From positions 4,128,001 through 4,192,000 of the forward strand of contig OZ241917.1 in NCBI GenBank assembly GCA_965203805.1: a DNA stretch of 64,000 nucleotides, given 5' to 3'. How positions within the stretch are numbered: the stretch's first letter is position 1; every line of letters starts with the position of its first letter. Made by a program: the position numbers and the translations under genes. Shown piece by piece: positions 4,179 to 12,575 of this stretch. The DNA is from Candidatus Latescibacterota bacterium. Its GTDB lineage: Bacteria; Latescibacterota; UBA2968; GCA-2709665. The notes beneath the pieces are model-generated. The model made no database searches, had not been told where the DNA came from, and was given only the letters and a program-made list of their open reading frames with translations.

Positions 4179-7142
4179 ATGACGGTGCGCGTGTTTTTTT
4201 TCTGCTGGTTGGTGCTGGGGTGCGGAACTGTTCTGGCCCAGCCCGACGGTTACGTCGAAGGGACGGTTAAAGGGGAGGCGGGCGAGGCCCTGCCCGGTGC
4301 CAATGTCGTTGTCCAGGGTACGGATCTTCCGGAGAGAGCCGTGGCCGCTGCCGGCGACGAGGCGCGGTTCCGAATTGCCGTTCCACCGGGCAATTACCGG
4401 ATCGAGATTACATTCATCGGTTACAGGGCCGAGATTCGTGAACGTGTCGCCGTGCATTCAGGGCGGTCCACCACGCTCAATGTGATTCTCACGGAGCAGG
4501 TCATACTTCTGGAGCAGAGCGTGGTTTCCGCTTCCCGTCGACGGGAAAAGATCCTGGACGCACCCGCTTCCGTCACGGTGGTCGAGTCCGCCGATATCCG
4601 TAAAAACCCTTCAATGAACGTCGCCGACCACGTGAAAGACCTGCCGTCGGTTGATTTCGCGAAAACCGGACTGGCCAACAGCAGCATCGTGGTGCGCGGC
4701 TTCAACAGCGTATTCACCGGCACGCTTCTTATGATGACGGACAACCGGCTTGCCCGGGTGCCGTCCGTGCGGGTGAACGCCCCGAATTTCATTCCCATTA
4801 CCAGCGACGACGTGGAACGCATCGAGGTGGTCCTGGGGCCGGGATCGGCGCTGTACGGGCCCAACAGCGCCGACGGGGTCATGCACATTATTACCCACTC
4901 TCCCTTTACGTCGCAGGGCACGAGCGCGCATTTCGGATACGGAGAGCGCGATCTGCGCCAGGCTTCGATTCGCCACGCAGGCAAGGTCGGAGACCGGGTG
5001 GGCTACAAGATATCCGCACGGTACTATACAGGGACGGAGTGGGATTACGTCGACCCGGAGGAGGTGCGGGCCAGGGAACGCAGGGACCAGGAAATCGCCG
5101 CGGGTCTGAACCTGCCGCCGCTTCCGACCCGCAATCCCGAAACCAACAATCTCGGTCTGGAAGGGCGCCTGGACTGGCGCCCATCGGACAATTTCACCGC
5201 CATCTTTTCTGCTGGACACAACAAGGCCGACCTGGTGGGGCTGACTGGCGTGGGGGCCTCGCAGACAAGAGACTGGCAGTACAACTACGCCCAGTTGCGC
5301 GTGTTGTACGGCGACTGGTTTATCCAGGCCTTTCGCAACTGGACCGATTCGGGCGGCACCTTTCTTCTGCGCACCGGCGACCCCGTGGTCGACCTGTCCT
5401 CCCTCACGGTATTCCAGGCGCAACATCTGTCGAAACTGGGCAAACGCCAGCGATTCACCTACGGCCTGGACGCATTGTTGACGCGGCCGGATACCGAGGA
5501 AACCGTGATGGGCAGGAACGAGTACGACGACGACCTGAACGAGTTCGGAGTCTACCTGCAGAGTGAAACCTCCCTTTCCAGTATGCTGGATCTCGTGCTT
5601 GCCCTGCGCTACGACTACCACAACCGCCTCTCGGACCCGGAGTTTTCGCCCCGTGCCGCGCTGGTGTTCAAGCCGGAGCCGACCCAGACTTGGCGCCTGA
5701 CCTATAACCGGGCGTTCACCACACCCACGTCGAACAATCTCTACCTCGATCTGCTGGCTACCCGGGACCCCTTCGGGTTCAGCGGTCTTTTCGGGCCGAT
5801 GTTTACGTCGCGCGGCCAGGCATTCGATCCAATCGACCTCTGGACCCAGGGAAACTACCAGGACGACGGTTTCGGCTTCACGTTCCGGAGGGAAGGGGGC
5901 CGGCCCCTGTTCCGCTCTCCGTTCGCCCCGTTGGCAGGGCTTCCCGCCGACCAGTATCTGCGCCTGGACGACCCGGTTTTCACCAACGTGATGTGGGGTA
6001 TCGGCAGGGAGGTGGTGTTGGAGCAGTTGTTGCCGACCGTAAAGGAGATGGCCGTCGGCATCCTGATCGAACAGGGCATGGGCGCCGATGAAGCCCGGGC
6101 CTTCGCGAACGGACTGGCTGAGGCCTTTCCCGGCATCGTTCCCGAGCAACTGACCGGTCTCCGCAATGTCATGGGCCGGCTGAATATCGCAACGCCGCCG
6201 CTTGGAGAAGAGCCGGGCGACAATCTGCAGCCGTTCTTCTTCGTTGAGTCGGACGGCGCCACGCCGGTTACGGCCTACGACGTTCCGCGGATTCAGTCCG
6301 CGATTACCAGGACGATCGAATTCGGCTACAAGGGCGTCCTGGCCGACAAGCTCATCGTGGCCGCGGACCTGTATCAGTCGAGGATCGAGAATTACGTGGG
6401 TTCGGTTTCGGTGGAAACCCCCAACGTTTTTCTAGATCCGGAGCGTCTTGCCGAGGCGCTGACTCGAGGATTCGAAGAGACGCTGTCCGATCCGTCCAAC
6501 GCGGTGCTCGCCGCCGGAATCCAGCTGGTTGACAACGTGCAGGTGCCGGGACTCCTGGAGGGCAACCGGAACGGTACGCCGGTGGACGAACTGACCGCCA
6601 TCTTCGTGGCCGGGGCGGCGGCCATACCATACGGTACGGTGTCGCCGGAGCAGGCGACCGATCCCTATGCGATGGTGCTGACCTACCGCAATTATGAAAA
6701 TATCACCCTGCGCGGGCTGGACCTGAGCATGGCCTACTATCCGACGGCGCAATGGCGGCTGACCGGCAATTATTCATATGTGAGCGAGAATTTCTTCAAG
6801 AACCTTAAGTATACGAATGTCCCGGGGGTTGGCGATGTCACGCTGAATTCGCCCCGGCACAAGTTCAAACTGGGGGCGACGTACGATTTCTCCCGGTGGG
6901 GGCTGGCGGTTGGCGGCGCCTTGCGCTTCACCGATTCCTTCCCCATGCAGTCCGGGGTGTACGTGGGCGACGTGGATGCCTATACGGTTCTCGACCTGAA
7001 GCTAAGCTACCGGTTGCCGGTCGAACGGGATATGGTTTTCCACGTCGACGGGAGCAACGTGCTGAATACCCGCTACCAGTCGTTCATCGGGGCCCCGGAG
7101 GTGGGCCGCCTCGTCTTCAGCCAGGTCAGTATGCGGTTTTGA
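4179..7142 (+). CDS. TonB-dependent outer membrane receptor with N-terminal carboxypeptidase-regulatory-like domain
   Basis: Signal peptide, LPGANVVV domain, VVSASRR..APASVTVV plug, ERIEVVLGPGSALYG, FSPRAALVF, C-terminal Phe. Confidence 0.95.
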   Translation: MTVRVFFFCWLVLGCGTVLAQPDGYVEGTVKGEAGEALPGANVVVQGTDLPERAVAAAGDEARFRIAVPPGNYRIEITFIGYRAEIRERVAVHSGRSTTLNVILTEQVILLEQSVVSASRRREKILDAPASVTVVESADIRKNPSMNVADHVKDLPSVDFAKTGLANSSIVVRGFNSVFTGTLLMMTDNRLARVPSVRVNAPNFIPITSDDVERIEVVLGPGSALYGPNSADGVMHIITHSPFTSQGTSAHFGYGERDLRQASIRHAGKVGDRVGYKISARYYTGTEWDYVDPEEVRARERRDQEIAAGLNLPPLPTRNPETNNLGLEGRLDWRPSDNFTAIFSAGHNKADLVGLTGVGASQTRDWQYNYAQLRVLYGDWFIQAFRNWTDSGGTFLLRTGDPVVDLSSLTVFQAQHLSKLGKRQRFTYGLDALLTRPDTEETVMGRNEYDDDLNEFGVYLQSETSLSSMLDLVLALRYDYHNRLSDPEFSPRAALVFKPEPTQTWRLTYNRAFTTPTSNNLYLDLLATRDPFGFSGLFGPMFTSRGQAFDPIDLWTQGNYQDDGFGFTFRREGGRPLFRSPFAPLAGLPADQYLRLDDPVFTNVMWGIGREVVLEQLLPTVKEMAVGILIEQGMGADEARAFANGLAEAFPGIVPEQLTGLRNVMGRLNIATPPLGEEPGDNLQPFFFVESDGATPVTAYDVPRIQSAITRTIEFGYKGVLADKLIVAADLYQSRIENYVGSVSVETPNVFLDPERLAEALTRGFEETLSDPSNAVLAAGIQLVDNVQVPGLLEGNRNGTPVDELTAIFVAGAAAIPYGTVSPEQATDPYAMVLTYRNYENITLRGLDLSMAYYPTAQWRLTGNYSYVSENFFKNLKYTNVPGVGDVTLNSPRHKFKLGATYDFSRWGLAVGGALRFTDSFPMQSGVYVGDVDAYTVLDLKLSYRLPVERDMVFHVDGSNVLNTRYQSFIGAPEVGRLVFSQVSMRF

Positions 7143-7272
7143 CCATGATTCGTATGGTTTCGAGGACGTTAAATCGAATATATGCGAATTGATAAAGGCG
7201 ATTAAACTGCGGATTACCAGGATACACCAGGTCACCGAACGTGAACGGAAGTATCATCCTTATGGACGACCT
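7142..7272. repeat. ~130-bp dispersed repeat, copy 1 (inverted copy at ~12358-12490)
   Basis: 7165-7250 (GACGTTAAATCG..TTGATAAAGGCGATTAAAC..CCAGGTCAC..ACGTGAACGGAA) closely matches the reverse complement of 12382-12467; weaker similarity extends on both sides. Confidence 0.85.
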
Positions 7273-7381
7273 TGATACTCCGTTTGGCACCGGTCCGTTC
7301 TGTGTCTCTTGTGTTTTTTGTGACCAATTTGACTGTTGTCTTTTTTGAATCGAGGTTAATCGCGTGCAATGGAAGGTAAGT

Positions 7382-7415
7382 GAGGGGGTGCGGCGACTGC
7401 CGCACCCCCTCTTTT
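7382..7415 (+). terminator. Intrinsic terminator
   Basis: Perfect 13-bp stem GAGGGGGTGCGGC/GCCGCACCCCCTC, GACT loop, then TTTT. Confidence 0.75.
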
Positions 7416-7436
7416 GCGAGGCAGAGGTCTGATAAT

Positions 7437-8444
7437 ATGTCTAGCAACAGGACATCAGCGGAGAATTCGAAAGAGACGCATGACGGTGGGGCGTCCATCC
7501 GCGATATGACGGCTACTCTGGACCGTGCGAAAGGGGCGCTGGTCGGTCTCGCTCTGGGCGACGCGCTCGGCACGACGCTGGAGTTTGCCGGTAGGGACAC
7601 CAGGCCGCCGGTTGCCGACCTGGTGGGCGGAGGTCCGTTCGGCCTTGCCGCGGGGGAGTGGACCGACGACACGAGCATGGCCCTTTGTCTCGCGGAATCG
7701 CTGCTTGAGCGAGGTCGGCTGGACGTTCACGATCTGATGAATCGGTTCGTCCGGTGGTATAAGGAGGGACATAATTCGGTCACCGGCACGTGTTTCGACA
7801 TCGGTGTGACCACGGAGCGGGCACTCAGGGCTTTCAGCGAAACCGGGGAGCCGATGAGCGGCAGCACCGATCCGCGCAGCGCCGGCAACGGTTCGCTCAT
7901 GCGGCTGTCGCCGGTGGCGATCCGATGGCGGCGCGACCGGGCGAGGGCGACGGCGGCCGCGCGGTTGCAGAGCCGAACCACGCACGGCGCCGTGCAGGCG
8001 GTGGAGGCTTGCGCGTTCTACGTCGAGCTGCTGATCGAGGCGATCGCCGGGGCGCCGAAGGAAACGGTCCTGCGTGCCAGAGAATGGAGCGGCGATGCTC
8101 AGATCGCCGGGGTGGCCGCGGGGACGTGGCGCACGAAGGCGCGCGACGCCATTTCGTCGTCAGGATACGTATTGCACACTCTGGAAGCGGCCCTGTGGTG
8201 CGTGGGCCGATCGGAATCCACTGAAGAAGCCCTGATTCTGGCGGCCAATCTCGCCGATGACGCCGACACGGTAGCTGCCGTCACCGGCCAGCTCGCCGGC
8301 GCGCTGTGGGGCATGTCGGACGCACCCGCCGGATGGCTCGAGAAACTGGCATGGCGCGGGCGCCTGGAAGCGCTCGCCACCGGCCTGTTCGAGGCCGCCA
8401 ACAGCGAGCGGGACGGACCCGTCGGTGAGACGCTATCCCATTAG
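7437..8444 (+). CDS. ADP-ribosylglycohydrolase family protein (DraG-like)
   Basis: GLALGDALG, WTDDT, DIG, AGNGSLMR, TTHG, DDADTVAAVTG motifs. Start ATG 7437 follows GAGG; ATG 7506 is an alternative. Confidence 0.95.
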   Translation: MSSNRTSAENSKETHDGGASIRDMTATLDRAKGALVGLALGDALGTTLEFAGRDTRPPVADLVGGGPFGLAAGEWTDDTSMALCLAESLLERGRLDVHDLMNRFVRWYKEGHNSVTGTCFDIGVTTERALRAFSETGEPMSGSTDPRSAGNGSLMRLSPVAIRWRRDRARATAAARLQSRTTHGAVQAVEACAFYVELLIEAIAGAPKETVLRAREWSGDAQIAGVAAGTWRTKARDAISSSGYVLHTLEAALWCVGRSESTEEALILAANLADDADTVAAVTGQLAGALWGMSDAPAGWLEKLAWRGRLEALATGLFEAANSERDGPVGETLSH

Positions 8445-9263
8445 ACTTCCATACCGCAACCCCACGGCTTTTTTCACCGCCTCCAGGGTCCGCTGGCCCT
8501 CGATCCTCGCCTCCGATCCCCCCAGATGCAGGACATCCCCCACGAGGCTCAGTCTGCCCTCCAGCTGTGTCTCCGCGATCCGAAACGGCTCCTGTTCGGC
8601 ATCCTTCCGCGCCTCCCCATTTGTTTTCGTCCCAACACGCGCGTCGGCATCCGCAATCCCGACCGCATTTGAGTGACGCACGCGCATTCCGGTAATTCCG
8701 CGGGTTCCGTTCGCCTGTACGCTTTGCTTGAACCCGGGCAACGGGAAGACGGTCCCGAACTCGCGATTGAATCGACGCGCTACTTCCCGGCACAGATTCG
8801 AGCGCATCTGCTGGCCGGGTCCCGCCGTCACCATTGAAGGCCGGAACAGCAGCACGTCCGCCGGCTGAAAGATCGGATAACCGGTAAACCCGGCGGTCGA
8901 CGACCGCCTCGCTGCATCCGGCTTCCGCCGCGCCTCCGGGAAGGCCATCGGGGCCGGCAGCGGTATCGAGTGATCAAGAATCATCGCCAATTCCGCGAGT
9001 TGCGGAACCTGAGACTGCAGAAAACAGACGCTCCGTTCCGGATCGAACCCGGATGCCAGCAGATCCGTGACGAGATGACGAATATTCAGCTCGATCTCAC
9101 GCGGATGTATCCGATCCGGGATCAACGCATGGTAGTCGGCGATCATAAAAAAGCAACGGGCTTCCGGCTGTCGGTCAAGTATCTGTTTCAAAACCCCGAT
9201 CAAGTGTCGGAGGATCGTGCTTTCCATTGGCCGGACACTTGCCAGGACAATAGGACGTTTCAT
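8433..9263 (-). CDS. Degenerate tryptophanyl-tRNA synthetase paralogue (no HIGH, no KMSKS, shortened anticodon-binding domain)
   Basis: TrpRS-like blocks CFFMIADYHAL, LASGFDPERS..FLQSQVP, GYPIFQPADVL, REVARRFN..FGTVFPLP, TLEAVKKAVGL. The HIGH position reads TILRH and the KMSKS position reads MRVRHS. AAGGAG RBS. Confidence 0.85.
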   Translation of the reverse strand: MKRPIVLASVRPMESTILRHLIGVLKQILDRQPEARCFFMIADYHALIPDRIHPREIELNIRHLVTDLLASGFDPERSVCFLQSQVPQLAELAMILDHSIPLPAPMAFPEARRKPDAARRSSTAGFTGYPIFQPADVLLFRPSMVTAGPGQQMRSNLCREVARRFNREFGTVFPLPGFKQSVQANGTRGITGMRVRHSNAVGIADADARVGTKTNGEARKDAEQEPFRIAETQLEGRLSLVGDVLHLGGSEARIEGQRTLEAVKKAVGLRYGSLMG

Positions 9264-9508
9264 TCCGAGGACTCCTTGTTTTCAAATATGCCAAGTCGAA
9301 AAACGGGCCGACGCCAGGGCGCCGCGTCGGAAAATGCAGTTTGCTGTACAAGAAAAGCCGCGATCCACTTCCAGGTGAACCGCGGCCATCGCCAGTCCTT
9401 CAGGCACAAATCATCCGGAGGCGGACGCACGGCTCCTGTTGCCCCGAGCCACCAGCGGTGAAGGGAAATCGCCGCGTTCCCGGACAAAATGCCCGAACGT
9501 TGTGCCAT
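9260..9508 (-). CDS. Trp-rich leader-like ORF (82 aa, 7 Trp including WW) between trpS and the TrpRS paralogue
   Basis: GAGG RBS before ATG 9508; sequence MAQRSGILSGNAAISLHRWWLG...; its stop overlaps the downstream ATG (ATGA at 9260-9263). Confidence 0.5.
   Translation of the reverse strand: MAQRSGILSGNAAISLHRWWLGATGAVRPPPDDLCLKDWRWPRFTWKWIAAFLVQQTAFSDAAPWRRPVFRLGIFENKESSE
9350..9386 (-). terminator. Intrinsic terminator / second attenuator hairpin
   Basis: Minus strand GCCGCGGTTCAC-CTGGAA-GTGGATCGCGGC (12-bp stem with two G-U pairs) followed by TTTTCTT. Confidence 0.7.
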
Positions 9509-9516
9509 GGTCAGCC

Positions 9517-10593
9517 TCACGATCCGGAGTCCTGCCGTTCGTCCCTGCGCATCCGGTCCCGGGCTTTCCGGGATATCCGGTTCCAGACGCCCGTGAGCCC
9601 CATGGCTTTCTTCATGGCCTTGAGCGTTTCATCGGCGACCACCTGGACGCGCTGCGTTCCTTCGTACAGTACCTTTTCCACGTACCCGGAATCCGCTTCG
9701 TATCGCGCCCTTCGCTCCCGAATCGGATCGAGAAAGTCGTTCAGCGCCCGCGTGAGCTTCTCCTTCACCTCCACGTCGCCGACCGTCCCGGCGCGGTACC
9801 TCGTCTTCAGGTCCGCCACTTCCTCCTTGTCCGGATTAAACGCGTCGTGGTAGACGAAGACGGGATTTCCTTCCACCCTGCCGGGTATGTCGGCTCTGAC
9901 CCGGTTGGGATCGGTAAACATCCCGCGCACCTTCTTCTTCACGGTCTGCGCATCGTCAGAAAGAAAAATCGCATTGTCCAGGCTCTTGCTCATTTTCGCC
10001 TGGCCGTCCGTTCCCACCAGAACCGGGACCTCGCCGATCAGGGCGTCCGGAATCGGGAAGACCTCACCGTAATAGCTGTTGAACCGACGGGCGATTTCCC
10101 GGGTCACCTCCACGTGCGCCAGGTTGTCCTTTCCCACGGGCACCAGGTGCGCCCTGGGGGTCAATATGTCCGCCGCCTGCAGAATCGGATATCCGACAAG
10201 CCCGAACGGGATCGCCTCGTCGTCCAGCCTGGCGGCGCGCGCCATATCCTTGATGCTGGGCAGCCGGGCGACTCTCGGCAGCGTCACCAGCATCTCGAAA
10301 AAGAGGTCCATCTCGTAGACGGCGTGGATGGCCGACTGCAGATAAATGGTCGATCTGGCCGGATCGATGCCCACGGCCAGGTAGTCCAGCAGCATTTCCC
10401 GCACATTCTCCCGAAGGGCATGGATATGCTCCTTCTGCGGCCGGGTCGTGAGCATATGCAGGTCCGCCACGAGAAAATAACATTCGTATTCGTCCTGCAG
10501 CCGGACCCGGTTCTTCAATGAGCCCACGTAATGCCCCAGGTGCATCCGCCCCGTGGGACGGTCTCCCGTCAGAATCCGTTTTCGATCGTCCAT
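9517..10593 (-). CDS. trpS: Tryptophan--tRNA ligase
   Basis: [14 protein letters not shown] (HIGH), [16 protein letters not shown], complete C-terminal domain. ATG 10593 with GGAGG RBS. Confidence 0.97.
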
Positions 10594-10606
10594 CGCGTTT
10601 TCCTCC

Positions 10607-10640
10607 AAAACAAAAATCCCCGCCGTTGACCGGCAGGGAC
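10607..10640 (-). terminator. trpS attenuator terminator hairpin
   Basis: GTCCCTGCCG-GTCAA-CGGCGGGGAT then TTTTGTTTT, directly before the trpS RBS. ACCGGC in the leader can pair with GCCGGT of the 5' arm as an antiterminator. Confidence 0.85.
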
Positions 10641-10668
10641 GTTGGTTTATTCAATTCGAATCTCAAGT

Positions 10669-10746
10669 TCAGCACGCAGTCAGCCGGCCGGTACGATTGA
10701 AGTCGTGCCGCCACCAGCACCCGCTGTGTATACCGCGCGCCGCCAT
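10669..10746 (-). CDS. TrpL-like attenuator leader peptide (25 aa)
   Basis: AAAGGA RBS, then MAARGIHSGCWWRHDFNRTGRLTAC*, with tandem TGG codons at 10711-10716. Too short for the ORF track. Confidence 0.85.
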   Translation of the reverse strand: MAARGIHSGCWWRHDFNRTGRLTAC

Positions 10747-10875
10747 TGCTTTTTCCTTTCAACCCAAACTGTGAATGACCGGTCAACGATATCGAATTCC
10801 GGATGCGCTGTCAAGCGAATTCTGCTATTTCCGGTTTTTCCACACGTGTTGCGCCCGATCCTGGATAAATTACAG

Positions 10876-10940
10876 ACATGGACAGACATGGATGGACAGG
10901 ATAGAAACAAAAAAGCGTGACAAAAGCACGAGAAAACGAG
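10876..10940 (+). repeat. Dispersed repeat CATGGATGGACAGGAT...AAAAGCACGAGAAAACGA (copies at ~42850-42965, ~49290-49420, partial inverted at ~48415-48443)
   Basis: Near-identical stretches seen directly at the listed positions. Confidence 0.8.
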
Positions 10941-11122
10941 TAACGGCAGTGAATCGATTCCCCATAGACCGCGCGTCGTCATTCCGGCCATCCTGAACCC
11001 GAAACATTTCGGCGGCCAACCCAATTCCGGACGCTTCAAGGATTTCGTTATGTGCGCTGCTAATGTTATTCAAAATCAACCGATTATACAACAAACAAAC
11101 CCGTTTTCATGAATAATCCGGG

Positions 11123-12115
11123 CTATGTTGCATCCCGCAACAGTTGCGCCATATCCACGGCAAAGTAGGTCAGGATTACATCCGCGCCCGCCCGTTTGAT
11201 GGACGTCAGGGTCTCCACCATCGCCCGCTCCTTTTCCACCCAGCCGCGTTCCGCGGCCGCCAGGACCATGCCGTACTCGCCCGACACGTTGTACGCTGCA
11301 ATGGGCACTTCGAAACTCTCCTTCGCCTTCGCGATGACGTCGAGGTAAGGGAGCGCGGGTTTCACCATCACCACGTCGGCCCCTTCCTCGATATCCAGCG
11401 CGGTCTCCTTCATCGCTTCCCGAATATTGGCGGGATCCATCTGATAGGTCTTCTTGTCCTCCGGCACCCCGCGCGCCTTCACCGGCGCGGACTTGAGCGC
11501 CCCCCGGAACGGCCCGTAGAAGCAGGATGCATACTTGGCGGAATAGGCCATGATCCCCACGTTGGTGAATCCGTGGTCGTCCAGCGTCACCCGGATGGCG
11601 CCCACCCGGCCATCCATCATGTCCGACGGCGTGACCCAGTCCACGCCCGCCTCGGCGTGAGACAGCGCCATTTGGCACAACACCCCGACGCTCTCGTCGT
11701 TGGCGATCTCACCGTCGATCAGCACGCCGTCATGTCCATGCGTGGTATAGGGATCCAGCGCCACGTCGGTCTGCACGCACAGGTCGGGAAGCGCCGCCTT
11801 CAGCGCCCGGACCGCGCGCTGGATCAGGCCGTCCGGATCGTACGCCATTGACGCGCGTTCGTCCTTCTCCTCCGAATAACCGAACAGATTCACGCCGCAG
11901 ATCCCGAGGCCGCACACCGTCTCGCACTCCCGCACGAGTTCGTCGACCGAAAACCGGAACTGACCGGGCATCGAGTCAATGGGTTCGCGCACATTGGCGC
12001 CTTCCGTTACGAACATCGGATAGATCAGGTCCCCGACGTTCAATACGGTTTCCCTGACGAGCGTCCGTATCGGTTCGGTGCGCCGCAGCCGGCGGGGTCG
12101 ATAGGTGAGTTCCAT
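11123..12115 (-). CDS. hemB: Porphobilinogen synthase (Asp-rich, zinc-independent type metal site)
   Basis: RPRRLR, DVALDPYTTHGHDG, SDMMDGRV, YSAKYAS, YQMDPAN, MVKPALPYLD, AYNVSGEY. Confidence 0.98.
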   Translation of the reverse strand: MELTYRPRRLRRTEPIRTLVRETVLNVGDLIYPMFVTEGANVREPIDSMPGQFRFSVDELVRECETVCGLGICGVNLFGYSEEKDERASMAYDPDGLIQRAVRALKAALPDLCVQTDVALDPYTTHGHDGVLIDGEIANDESVGVLCQMALSHAEAGVDWVTPSDMMDGRVGAIRVTLDDHGFTNVGIMAYSAKYASCFYGPFRGALKSAPVKARGVPEDKKTYQMDPANIREAMKETALDIEEGADVVMVKPALPYLDVIAKAKESFEVPIAAYNVSGEYGMVLAAAERGWVEKERAMVETLTSIKRAGADVILTYFAVDMAQLLRDAT

Positions 12116-12575
12116 AGAGCCTCTTTAATTCAAACACGGATCAGGATTTACAGGATTATAGGATTAAGCAGGATTAGAAATCAGGATCAAAACCAGGTGC
12201 AGGAAAAAGCAAAGAGCAGGGCAAATGCTCGCTCCTCCGGGAAAAAACGGCAGACCGCGCCACGTCACCATGACCAATCAGACTCCGAATTCCATTAACC
12301 TTAATCTGACAACAACCGCAATGCGGTGCCGCGACGAAACCTTTCGAAATGGGCCGAAAAGGCCATCCAAATGGACATTTTTTCCGTTCACGTCCAGTGA
12401 CCTGGAGAATCCTGGAAATCCGACGTTTAATCGCCTTTATCAACTTGCGTATATGCGATTTAACGTCACCGAAAAACGACGAATCAAGGTTAGAATGTAC
12501 CCTCGCTGGTGCCGATGTCAACCCTCGCGTTCAAGCCGGGTTTGTCGACCGGGCGGCACGAGCGGACACGGCGAG

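Follow-up and report, generated by a model that had tools for sequence, protein, structure and literature searches.

A tryptophanyl-tRNA synthetase remnant kept as an intact reading frame behind trpS and a Trp-codon leader in Latescibacterota

Introduction

In Streptomyces, a second, divergent tryptophanyl-tRNA synthetase (TrpRS) gene (~30% identity) is preceded by a leader with Trp codons and a terminator, as in the case of trpS2 of S. avermitilis and TrpRS1 of S. coelicolor; attenuation of trpRS1 has reportedly been shown experimentally. Here, a gene in a similar setting is described, psi-TrpRS (psi in the following), which lies directly behind the housekeeping trpS in a stretch of 64,000 nucleotides (the window; contig OZ241917.1, positions 4,128,001 to 4,192,000) from the genome of a Candidatus Latescibacterota bacterium (assembly GCA_965203805.1, here G000; 5.87 Mb in one contig). 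The auxiliary enzymes of Streptomyces are full-length and active, whereas psi lacks the ATP motifs and the small domain; its leader differs from theirs in the pairing of UGG with CCN codons, in an open reading frame (ORF) that runs through the terminator and in that no 2:3 antiterminator is predicted. psi is a genuine pseudo-enzyme of the TrpRS fold, non-catalytic as judged by its motifs, and appears to derive from an auxiliary TrpRS clade (TrpRS-II). The purifying selection on its fold is relaxed but clear.

Classical attenuators have been predicted in front of trpS2 and leuS in Streptomyces, as stated in part of one study (PMC1262725). Among the known TrpRS duplicates, a 2022 review names, in the portion consulted, TrpRSII, associated with nitric-oxide synthase (NOS), and the indolmycin-resistant TrpRS1; in one of its tables the column for aminoacyl-tRNA synthetase (aaRS)-like, non-aminoacylating proteins holds a dash for TrpRS (PMC9437257). 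The consulted portion of a further source makes no mention of truncated TrpRS (PMC5388404), and no description of a dead or small-domain-less bacterial TrpRS family was found in the literature searched, the scope of which did not extend to subscription journals. The TrpRS II-NOS pair of Deinococcus is not paralleled in G000, in which (99.8% complete) PF02898 finds 0 matches, the controls B. subtilis and D. radiodurans being positive.

The [4Fe-4S]-type TrpRS of Thermotoga maritima (2g36), which presumably binds an Fe-S cluster, is the second-best PDB sequence relative of psi (E 3e-27) and ranks seventh by fold (TMq 0.75); its cysteine-bearing part is deleted in psi or replaced by a disordered linker. 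With aaRS paralogues of the HisZ kind, psi shares the loss of motifs together with purifying selection on the synthetase fold, but HisZ is distinct in having a defined partner, HisG, and a defined role.

On the regulatory side, two types of attenuator are close to the psi leader. The leader ORF of the pyrBI coupling attenuator of E. coli extends through the intrinsic terminator as well, and in attenuation of this type the terminator would be covered by a ribosome that closely follows the polymerase. The codons presumed to do the sensing at the psi leader differ, being UGG and predicted to be sequestered in a stem with Pro codons. The trpL leader likewise combines a translated short ORF carrying tandem sensed codons with a subsequent intrinsic terminator; it differs from psi-type leaders, in 35/36 of which the stop codon lies after or inside the hairpin and for which no 2:3 antiterminator is predicted. 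A terminator located a few bases behind a translated gene was found to be repressed almost completely, according to part of one report (PMC4824070).

A TrpRS-fold gene that has lost its catalytic motifs

As described in the first-pass annotation of the window, psi is an intact frame of 276 codons with a good ribosome-binding site (RBS; Table 1); the GGAG core of its Shine-Dalgarno (SD) sequence is retained in all six orthologues of the intergenic alignment. The gene starts 253 nt downstream of trpS on the same strand, and its 3' end is convergent with an ADP-ribosylglycohydrolase gene (ARH, 7380-8444, PF03747), with which it shares a 12-nt overlap at 8433-8444. PF00579 is its sole Pfam match at E <= 0.01, a threshold at which no cyclodipeptide-synthase family was hit. 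This profile is matched with E 2.1e-18 by residues 22-175, corresponding to profile positions 23-181 of 292 only, while the neighbouring trpS product covers positions 6-291. All NCBIfam TrpRS equivalogs remain under their cut-offs (TIGR00233 with 107.4 bits vs 176.75, NF008922 with 137.2 vs 572), and BLASTP aligns psi to the product of trpS with 33% identity across 221 aa.

The losses are as follows: (i) HIGH is absent, ILRH standing where HLGH is expected (the psi segment in the BLASTP alignment is PMESTILRHLIG); (ii) the GxDQ aspartate is absent, GPGQ being found there within VTAGPGQQMR; (iii) the KMSKS position (KM(S/G)KS) reads GMRVR; (iv) of the small, anticodon-binding domain, only the last two helices can be aligned and are left, and the connective peptide 1 (CP1) loop is lost as well. 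All three motif positions vary from orthologue to orthologue. In contrast, the ADYHAL, CFLQSQ, CFLQSQVPQLAEL, GYPIFQPAD and RRFNREFG blocks are retained in both the BLASTP and the family alignment. The inventory in the first-pass annotation, with HIGH, KMSKS, the VPVGxDQxxH segment and most of the anticodon domain lost and the ADYHAL, FLQS and GYP blocks kept, is confirmed by these alignments; its view of psi as non-catalytic is supported by the motifs, and the orthologues share the same losses.

In an AlphaFold2 model based on a 61-row alignment (mean predicted local distance difference test score, pLDDT, of 70.7), confidence is good for the Rossmann core and for the two C-terminal helices, whereas pLDDT falls below 50 at residues 106-128 and 183-222. 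The best Foldseek matches of this model are all bacterial TrpRS, with TMq 0.75 for 6ncr and 2g36.

Table 1. Features of the trpS-psi locus, in positions of the window
Feature	Position	Strand	Remarks
psi-TrpRS ORF	8433..9263	-	276 codons, ATG start; Rossmann core and C-terminal helix pair of a TrpRS-II
Shine-Dalgarno AAGGAG	9272..9277	-	8 nt before the psi ATG
Second, weaker terminator-like hairpin and T-run	9309..9324	-	downstream of the leader terminator, upstream of the psi RBS
Intrinsic-terminator hairpin	9356..9387	-	13 pairs, then UUUUCUU; within the leader ORF; free energy (dG) -20.5 kcal/mol
Pro-Pro-Pro codons CCG CCU CCG	9416..9424	-	complementary to the Trp codons
UGG UGG (tandem Trp codons) in the leader ORF	9449..9454	-	invariant columns of the leader alignment
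Type-B leader ORF	9260..9508	-	82 aa, MAQRSGILSGNAAISLHRWWLGATGAVRPPPDD...; starts 8 nt after the trpS stop; ends in ATGA overlapping the psi start
Housekeeping trpS	9517..10593	-	directly upstream of psi; 358 aa; TIGR00233 311 bits
trpS leader terminator hairpin	10616-10640	-	ends 8 nt before the trpS RBS
trpS leader peptide	10669-10746	-	MAARGIHSGCWWRHDFNRTGRLTAC; classical-looking; stop precedes the terminator

Selection on psi within the genus

A TrpRS match was obtained in 52/53 genomes of the order. The 15 genomes of the genus, G000 among them, share the gene order hemB-trpS-(psi)-ARH, and psi is present at the same slot in six genomes (G000, G011, G017, G016, G007 and G009). Each of these copies is intact, with 269-308 aa, an ATG start and a TAG stop and neither frameshift nor internal stop, and they differ by five gap blocks, every one in whole codons; a disrupted intermediate, i.e. 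a frameshifted or stop-containing copy, occurs in 0 of the 15 genomes. Under random substitution to the degree of divergence observed, the chance of a stop-free frame would be 5.7%, 3.2%, 3.9%, 0.2% and 0.16% for the five orthologues (5000 trials each).

Pairwise ratios of nonsynonymous to synonymous divergence (dN/dS, omega; NG86 method) range from 0.28 to 0.46 for psi (15/15 pairs), from 0.046 to 0.085 for trpS and from 0.14 to 0.27 for ARH; the corresponding maximum likelihood values (IQ-TREE, GY+F3X4) are 0.367, 0.044 and 0.146. The log-likelihood of psi is -3761.6 with omega free vs -3826.7 at omega 1, a difference of 65 units in a comparison that is not a clean one-parameter test because the omega = 1 run also fixed kappa at 2. 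The codon bootstrap places the upper 95% bound for dN/dS of psi at or below 0.62 in 8/8 pairs. These values, together with six orthologues free of stops, frameshifts and intact motifs, agree with the earlier proposal that psi is kept by selection, and dN/dS stays well away from 1 in every pair.

The constraint is distributed as a mosaic. Residues 61-100 (omega 0.09-0.27), 129-177 (0.09-0.41) and 234-276 (0.04-0.25) are the tighter stretches, with omega ~0.1 in the core blocks at a dS of 0.2-1.4, whereas residues 101-128 (0.52-1.63) and 178-233 (0.30-1.37) are loose and coincide with the segments of the model with pLDDT <50. Among nine psi-type sequences 92 residues are invariant, 66 of which equal the TrpRS-II consensus; positions conserved in TrpRS-II but released in psi are found in the HIGH region, in GFVGYP of the Trp pocket, in the CP1 loop and in the neighbourhood of KMSKS. 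Between the two groups of orthologues, psi has roughly double the dS of its flanking genes (0.9-1.3 vs 0.47-0.70), and G016 is placed with the G000 group in the psi tree and outside it in the flank tree; the excess and the conflict alike could go back to old alleles, to recombination or to misalignment of the linker.

Descent from an auxiliary TrpRS

trpS and psi are the only TrpRS-like genes of G000. In a collection of 5.8 billion proteins, the nearest relatives of psi (P0001-P0008, 269-308 aa, 48-98% identical) show the same motif losses. They are followed by a tight group of 332-aa proteins (39-40% identity by BLAST, 43-47% in a MAFFT alignment), which carry HLGH, GPDQ and KMGKS as well as, in the small domain, a Cys cluster motif and the C-terminus of which is nearly identical to that of psi; the Cys cluster motif is missing from psi, in which the corresponding region is absent. 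Further relatives of 245-248 aa lack exactly the stretch from KMGKS to the small domain. Identity of psi is 39-47% to the 332-aa forms vs 31-33% to the neighbouring trpS. In a tree built from 35 paralogues together with 3 housekeeping sequences, which was obtained by a quick search and with a tool warning on long branches, the paralogue clade is split from housekeeping trpS with a value of 100 in the SH-like approximate likelihood-ratio test (SH-aLRT), and psi groups with short forms from two sister genera in a subclade of long branches.

As far as identities and tree can tell, the ancestor of psi is an auxiliary Fe-S-type TrpRS-II of 332 aa, ancestral to this order of Latescibacterota, and not a copy of trpS. 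The first-pass annotation had assigned psi to a different TrpRS clade from its neighbour and held it not to be a recent copy, and both statements are borne out. Its alternative of a displaced ancestral trpS in decay fails with respect to origin, the ancestor being apparently auxiliary and leader-controlled; the trend towards decay is seen in part, in the neutral catalytic loops and the deletions in 9/15 genomes.

Small-domain-less forms are found elsewhere in the clade. Nine species of genus g11 (L021, L022, L025-L031) have a 248-aa TrpRS-II form that arises by a single clean in-frame deletion of 84 codons comprising KMGKS and the small domain. The 245-aa form of G052, with which G045 was placed by frame length alone, has deletion borders unlike those of the 248-aa form. 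HIGH is also lost in forms of 234 aa (G003), 235 aa (G004), 237 aa (G005) and 222 aa (G031). The form of G004 has neither HIGH nor KMSKS and is located downstream of a WWIW leader; psi differs from it in being longer (269-308 aa), in having a degenerate former KMSKS stretch and a variable linker instead of a clean deletion, and in its leader sequence. A TrpRS-II-derived copy in G030 (C47:234749-235342) has three in-frame TAG codons and is either a true pseudogene of the family or something else.

Over the shared 248 columns, the median omega is 0.097 in the 248-aa genes (8 of 9, 28 pairs; G035 was excluded since its contig ends inside the gene) vs 0.11 in the 332-aa genes (10 genes, 45 pairs). 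Because these values are nearly equal, selection in g11 has not slackened after KMSKS and the anticodon domain were lost, and in the TrpRS-II family loss of the tRNA-charging parts is not equivalent to loss of function. The equal omega of the 248-aa forms is the strongest hint that the TrpRS-II core has a role beyond tRNA charging. In the protein tree of g11, species with the 248-aa form are interleaved with species keeping the 332-aa form; either one allele was spread by recombination or the tree lacks resolution. HIGH is changed in two of the 248-aa forms (MYLGH in G047, HLEH in G051). A weak match in G012 (E 4e-4) is located on another contig (C68).

The leader in front of psi

The spacer between trpS and psi, which is conserved better than psi itself in the intergenic alignment, accommodates a leader ORF and an intrinsic terminator (Table 1), neither of which appears in the first-pass annotation. 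An SD-like GAGG in front of the leader ORF overlaps the trpS stop codon. The N-terminal 16 residues of the leader peptide are variable, though in frame, and are followed by the core (L/M)xRWWx(G/C)A(T/A)G(A/T)VRPPPDD. Homologous leaders of the form M..RWW(W)..(D/E)V(C/R)PPP(D/G).. precede the orthologues in 6/6 psi-bearing genomes of the genus, 24/24 loci of family f2 and the genes of G003, G004, G005, G031 and G052; hence all 35 TrpRS-II-derived genes in this count, which leaves out G045 and G030, have the leader, be they full-length, small-domain-less or dead. WW or WWW is present in 36/36 leaders, retrieved from 37 loci searched, of which G022 yielded none.

The homology is visible when 23 leaders are aligned, and from these RNAalifold recovers the terminator, 3 stem pairs of which show covariation with changes on both sides. 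In minimum free energy (MFE) folds the UGG codons pair with the CCN-CCN-CCN codons, in f2 as a 12-bp stem, and the leader peptide carries PPP because of this pairing. The leader stop follows the terminator hairpin in 31/36, is located inside it in 4/36 and precedes it by 5 nt in 1/36, as counted in a table of which two rows were mis-framed by the script; the single leader that stops before the hairpin is that of G018, a genome without psi. The palindrome of the second hairpin is retained in G011, G017 and G016 and different in G007 and G009. The type-B leader ORF lacks a stop codon at two loci, L013 (G037) and L019 (G044), where it continues in frame into trpS2; in database entries such as P0037 (301 aa), the called protein has taken in the leader. 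Most of the g11 loci (L011-L031) have a second conserved small WW ORF, M(T/I)MHDHILTDATPDRVLAPRVSETVRGWW(R/W)AAVWVC, upstream of the type-B leader and ~200-450 nt upstream of trpS2.

Folding of the leader, at equilibrium MFE only, revealed no antiterminator: the terminator persists when a ribosome occupies the UGG codons (7/7 leaders: G000, G016, G007, G038, G048, G024 and G026) and when it occupies the PPP codons (6/6, the same set without G026). Only in G007, and there in a truncated RNA, might region 2 pair with the 5' arm. The fold of the whole leader is not better than those of shuffled sequences (z = -0.93). Since a permissive Rfam search of 7000-12500 gave no match at E <= 1, the leader is not a described RNA family. 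A sigma-70 consensus scan of 8200-11200 detected no promoter-like site between the terminator and psi. A scan of the whole G000 genome for WW-containing ORFs followed by a terminator returned 14 hits, the trpS leader being the sole convincing one, while the strict hairpin rule missed the psi leader with its two G-U pairs; it yielded neither a regulon nor a clue to polarity.

Because the leader ORF extends into or through the terminator in 35/36 cases and no antiterminator is predicted, the leader may function as a coupling attenuator of the pyrBI type, with read-through at plentiful Trp-tRNA and termination upon a stall at UGG. This assignment is favoured to a modest degree; the classical polarity is judged possible, though less probable.

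trpS probably starts with the ATG at 10593, 8 nt downstream of GGAGGA, rather than with the listed TTG at 10608. It has a leader of its own (Table 1), so that trpS and psi are placed behind two different Trp leaders in tandem. The trpS leader occurs in 9/10 genomes of the genus examined (G000 included) and, in the form of MARDGHVRGWWYESIHTGRLTVC-like peptides, in genera g3, g4 and g5 (3/5 genomes of other genera examined). Outside the window, trpE (G000:C1:3141868-3142030) is preceded by a promoter-like TTGACA-17-TTTAAT, the leader ORF VTDRGRNRLAWRGYFYRSYRWYYREAAERHVCPRE and a terminator with a 9-T run; this leader, with mixed Trp/Tyr/Phe codons, is a third type in the genome and is of no help on polarity.

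Predicted dimer and Trp pocket

The modelled complex of TrpS and psi has an interface score (ipSAE) of 0.74 (median of 3 runs) vs 0.00 for the best of 3 controls; pLDDT of the partners is at least 63, and at least 60% of the contacts are common to the runs. The mark applied is reached by 58/80 solved complexes and 2/110 mismatched pairs, a calibration that is only rough for the alignments made here. The predicted pose is that of a canonical TrpRS dimer, with an interface made up of the canonical elements, namely residues 43-62 and 82-85, helix 87-99 and the helices at the C-terminus. As the pair resembles solved TrpRS homodimers, a positive score is expected and indicates likeness, not binding. 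D43, Q83, S84, Q133, A135 and Q151 are invariant in the psi group and D136 is found in 8/9 sequences, psi of G016 having D136A at the aspartate that contacts the indole. In f2, TrpS2 faces a convergent 195-aa gene and polA.

Proposed role and alternatives

psi is, with modest confidence, taken to be a real translated gene: a leader-gated, non-catalytic TrpRS-II remnant with its fold under selection, which would serve as a conditionally useful accessory protein. For a transcript from trpS to include psi, RNA polymerase would have to get past the leader terminator, and the amount of psi would depend on how the ribosome reads the UGG codons: fluent decoding would permit read-through, whereas a ribosome stalled on UGG would cause termination. 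The protein would act by binding and not by catalysis, as a subunit of a TrpRS-type dimer; a homodimer is the most likely form because the surface residues of psi are still those of TrpRS-II. It may be, for example, a binder of or decoy for Trp or a Trp analogue, needed under certain conditions and dispensable in many lineages.

A number of observations weigh against this reading. In nine of the 15 genomes of the genus psi is gone and trpS is followed directly by ARH at a distance of 20-261 nt, with deletion junctions of at least five sequence types; of these loci, G015 and G018 retain leader and terminator, G019 retains part and the other six none. The tree of trpS and ARH scatters the psi-bearing genomes, placing psi-bearing G009 as sister to leader-only G015 with support 99/99, and six to eight losses without regain are implied when counted by eye on this two-gene flank tree. 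psi is dispensable, being expendable in most close relatives. Its omega is eight times that of trpS, and its specific fixed changes are only eight, all mild and without a signature of a new function. The 46 residues of the predicted interface are not enriched for invariant positions (20/46 vs 72/230, p = 0.12; p = 0.86 among ordered residues only), and in omega they do not differ from the remaining fold. Trp-pocket residues with a conservation of at least 95% in TrpRS-II (G125, F126, V127, Y129, P130) vary among the psi orthologues, and a search for a conserved operon partner of TrpS2 in f2 found none. With regard to the leader, the folds hold no antiterminator, and its polarity is read solely from its architecture. 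As to expression, contigs from the RNA library of one run cover 8240-8898 (4 differences) and 8895-9177 (2 differences), which counts in favour of the reading, but they indicate presence only, giving neither level nor strand (ARH overlaps the 3' end), and may stem from DNA carry-over. The DNA run of the same sample has the whole stretch in one contig. In the RNA library 9265-9657 and most of trpS are uncovered, which was not used since contigs cannot show absence.

Two suggestions of the first-pass annotation are weakened by these data: Trp binding, by the drifting pocket residues and D136A in G016, and heterodimer formation, since the complex model passes as any TrpRS-like pair would be expected to and the interface is no more constrained than the remainder.

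Much of this record would also suit an expressed relic on its way out, in which psi is functionless and still transcribed from the trpS/leader unit, its constraint reflects selection against misfolding and deletion is the usual end. The clean deletions through several independent junctions, an omega of 0.37 as the highest of the three neighbouring genes, the neutral evolution of catalytic loops and linker, the lack of neofunctional fixed changes, a constraint spread across the fold with no focus on any one surface, and the relative in G030 with its three TAG codons are all in line with such decay. It is less easily reconciled with the lack of any broken copy (6 intact, 9 none, 0 broken of 15), with an omega of ~0.1 in the core blocks at dS 0.2-1.4, which is strong for a useless and weakly expressed protein, with the conserved RBS and leader, or with small-domain-less relatives that are as constrained as the full enzymes. 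Decay is considered rather unlikely.

In TrpRS, as established for class Ic enzymes, the tRNA is bound across the dimer. psi could accordingly pair with co-transcribed TrpS into a heterodimer that lacks one active site and the opposite anticodon domain, by which Trp-tRNA charging would be throttled or tuned. The complex model scores well above its controls, the interface is built from canonical dimer elements, and the dead forms of the f1 family (genera g1, g3, g4) are always located directly behind trpS on the same strand, whereas the full, catalytically intact f2 forms examined (G033, G048) are ~1 Mb or more away from it. Heteromers of duplicated aaRS are known from ThrRS T1/T2, as mentioned in the consulted portions of two papers (PMC4787780, PMC9437257). 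However, the model cannot separate homodimer from heterodimer, its success being expected from homodimer likeness; the interface residues of psi are of the TrpRS-II type, with 31-33% overall identity to TrpS and no convergence (A93, for instance, faces D101), and are not specially constrained; and G031 of f2 is motif-dead yet not linked to trpS. A heterodimeric regulator appears quite improbable on this balance.

A bolder version of the accessory-protein reading is more doubtful still: the Rossmann core of TrpRS-II might be a module that works independently of tRNA in a function of its own and is kept by selection after at least five separate losses of the small domain, the leader might belong to a novel class of Trp attenuators in which the polarity is inverted and only fluent decoding of UGG gives read-through, and psi behind trpS might be a dominant-negative or buffering subunit, made at plentiful Trp-tRNA, that caps TrpRS activity or soaks up Trp analogues common in sponges. 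The sequencing runs that contain this stretch are labelled as sponge, coral and marine metagenomes.

That psi is a residual enzyme, which by a rebuilt site activates Trp or a related acid or acts on aminoacyl-tRNA in the manner of cyclodipeptide synthases, is very improbable: the invariant residues listed above and the precedent of cyclodipeptide synthases as class-Ic Rossmann-core enzymes without HIGH and KMSKS (described in parts of PMC3105412 and PMC7566563) are outweighed by the loss of HIGH, KMSKS and the GxDQ aspartate at positions that vary among orthologues, by PF00579 as the only Pfam match, by the drift of pocket residues and by the absence of biosynthetic neighbours around psi.

Conclusions

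Whether psi is the conditional accessory protein favoured here or not, this order of Latescibacterota presents a graded series, which leads from a full enzyme via a clean, equally constrained deletion of the small domain and motif-dead mini forms to psi, and every examined member of which is located behind one conserved and unusual Trp-codon leader. The series opens the question of what a class-Ic Rossmann core is capable of without tRNA recognition, and the type-B leader that of a leader-peptide attenuator with a polarity opposite to trpL. If psi is only slowly dying, the locus would be a well-dated case of the decay of a synthetase paralogue, in which the catalytic loops go first, the fold goes last and a clean deletion stands at the end.

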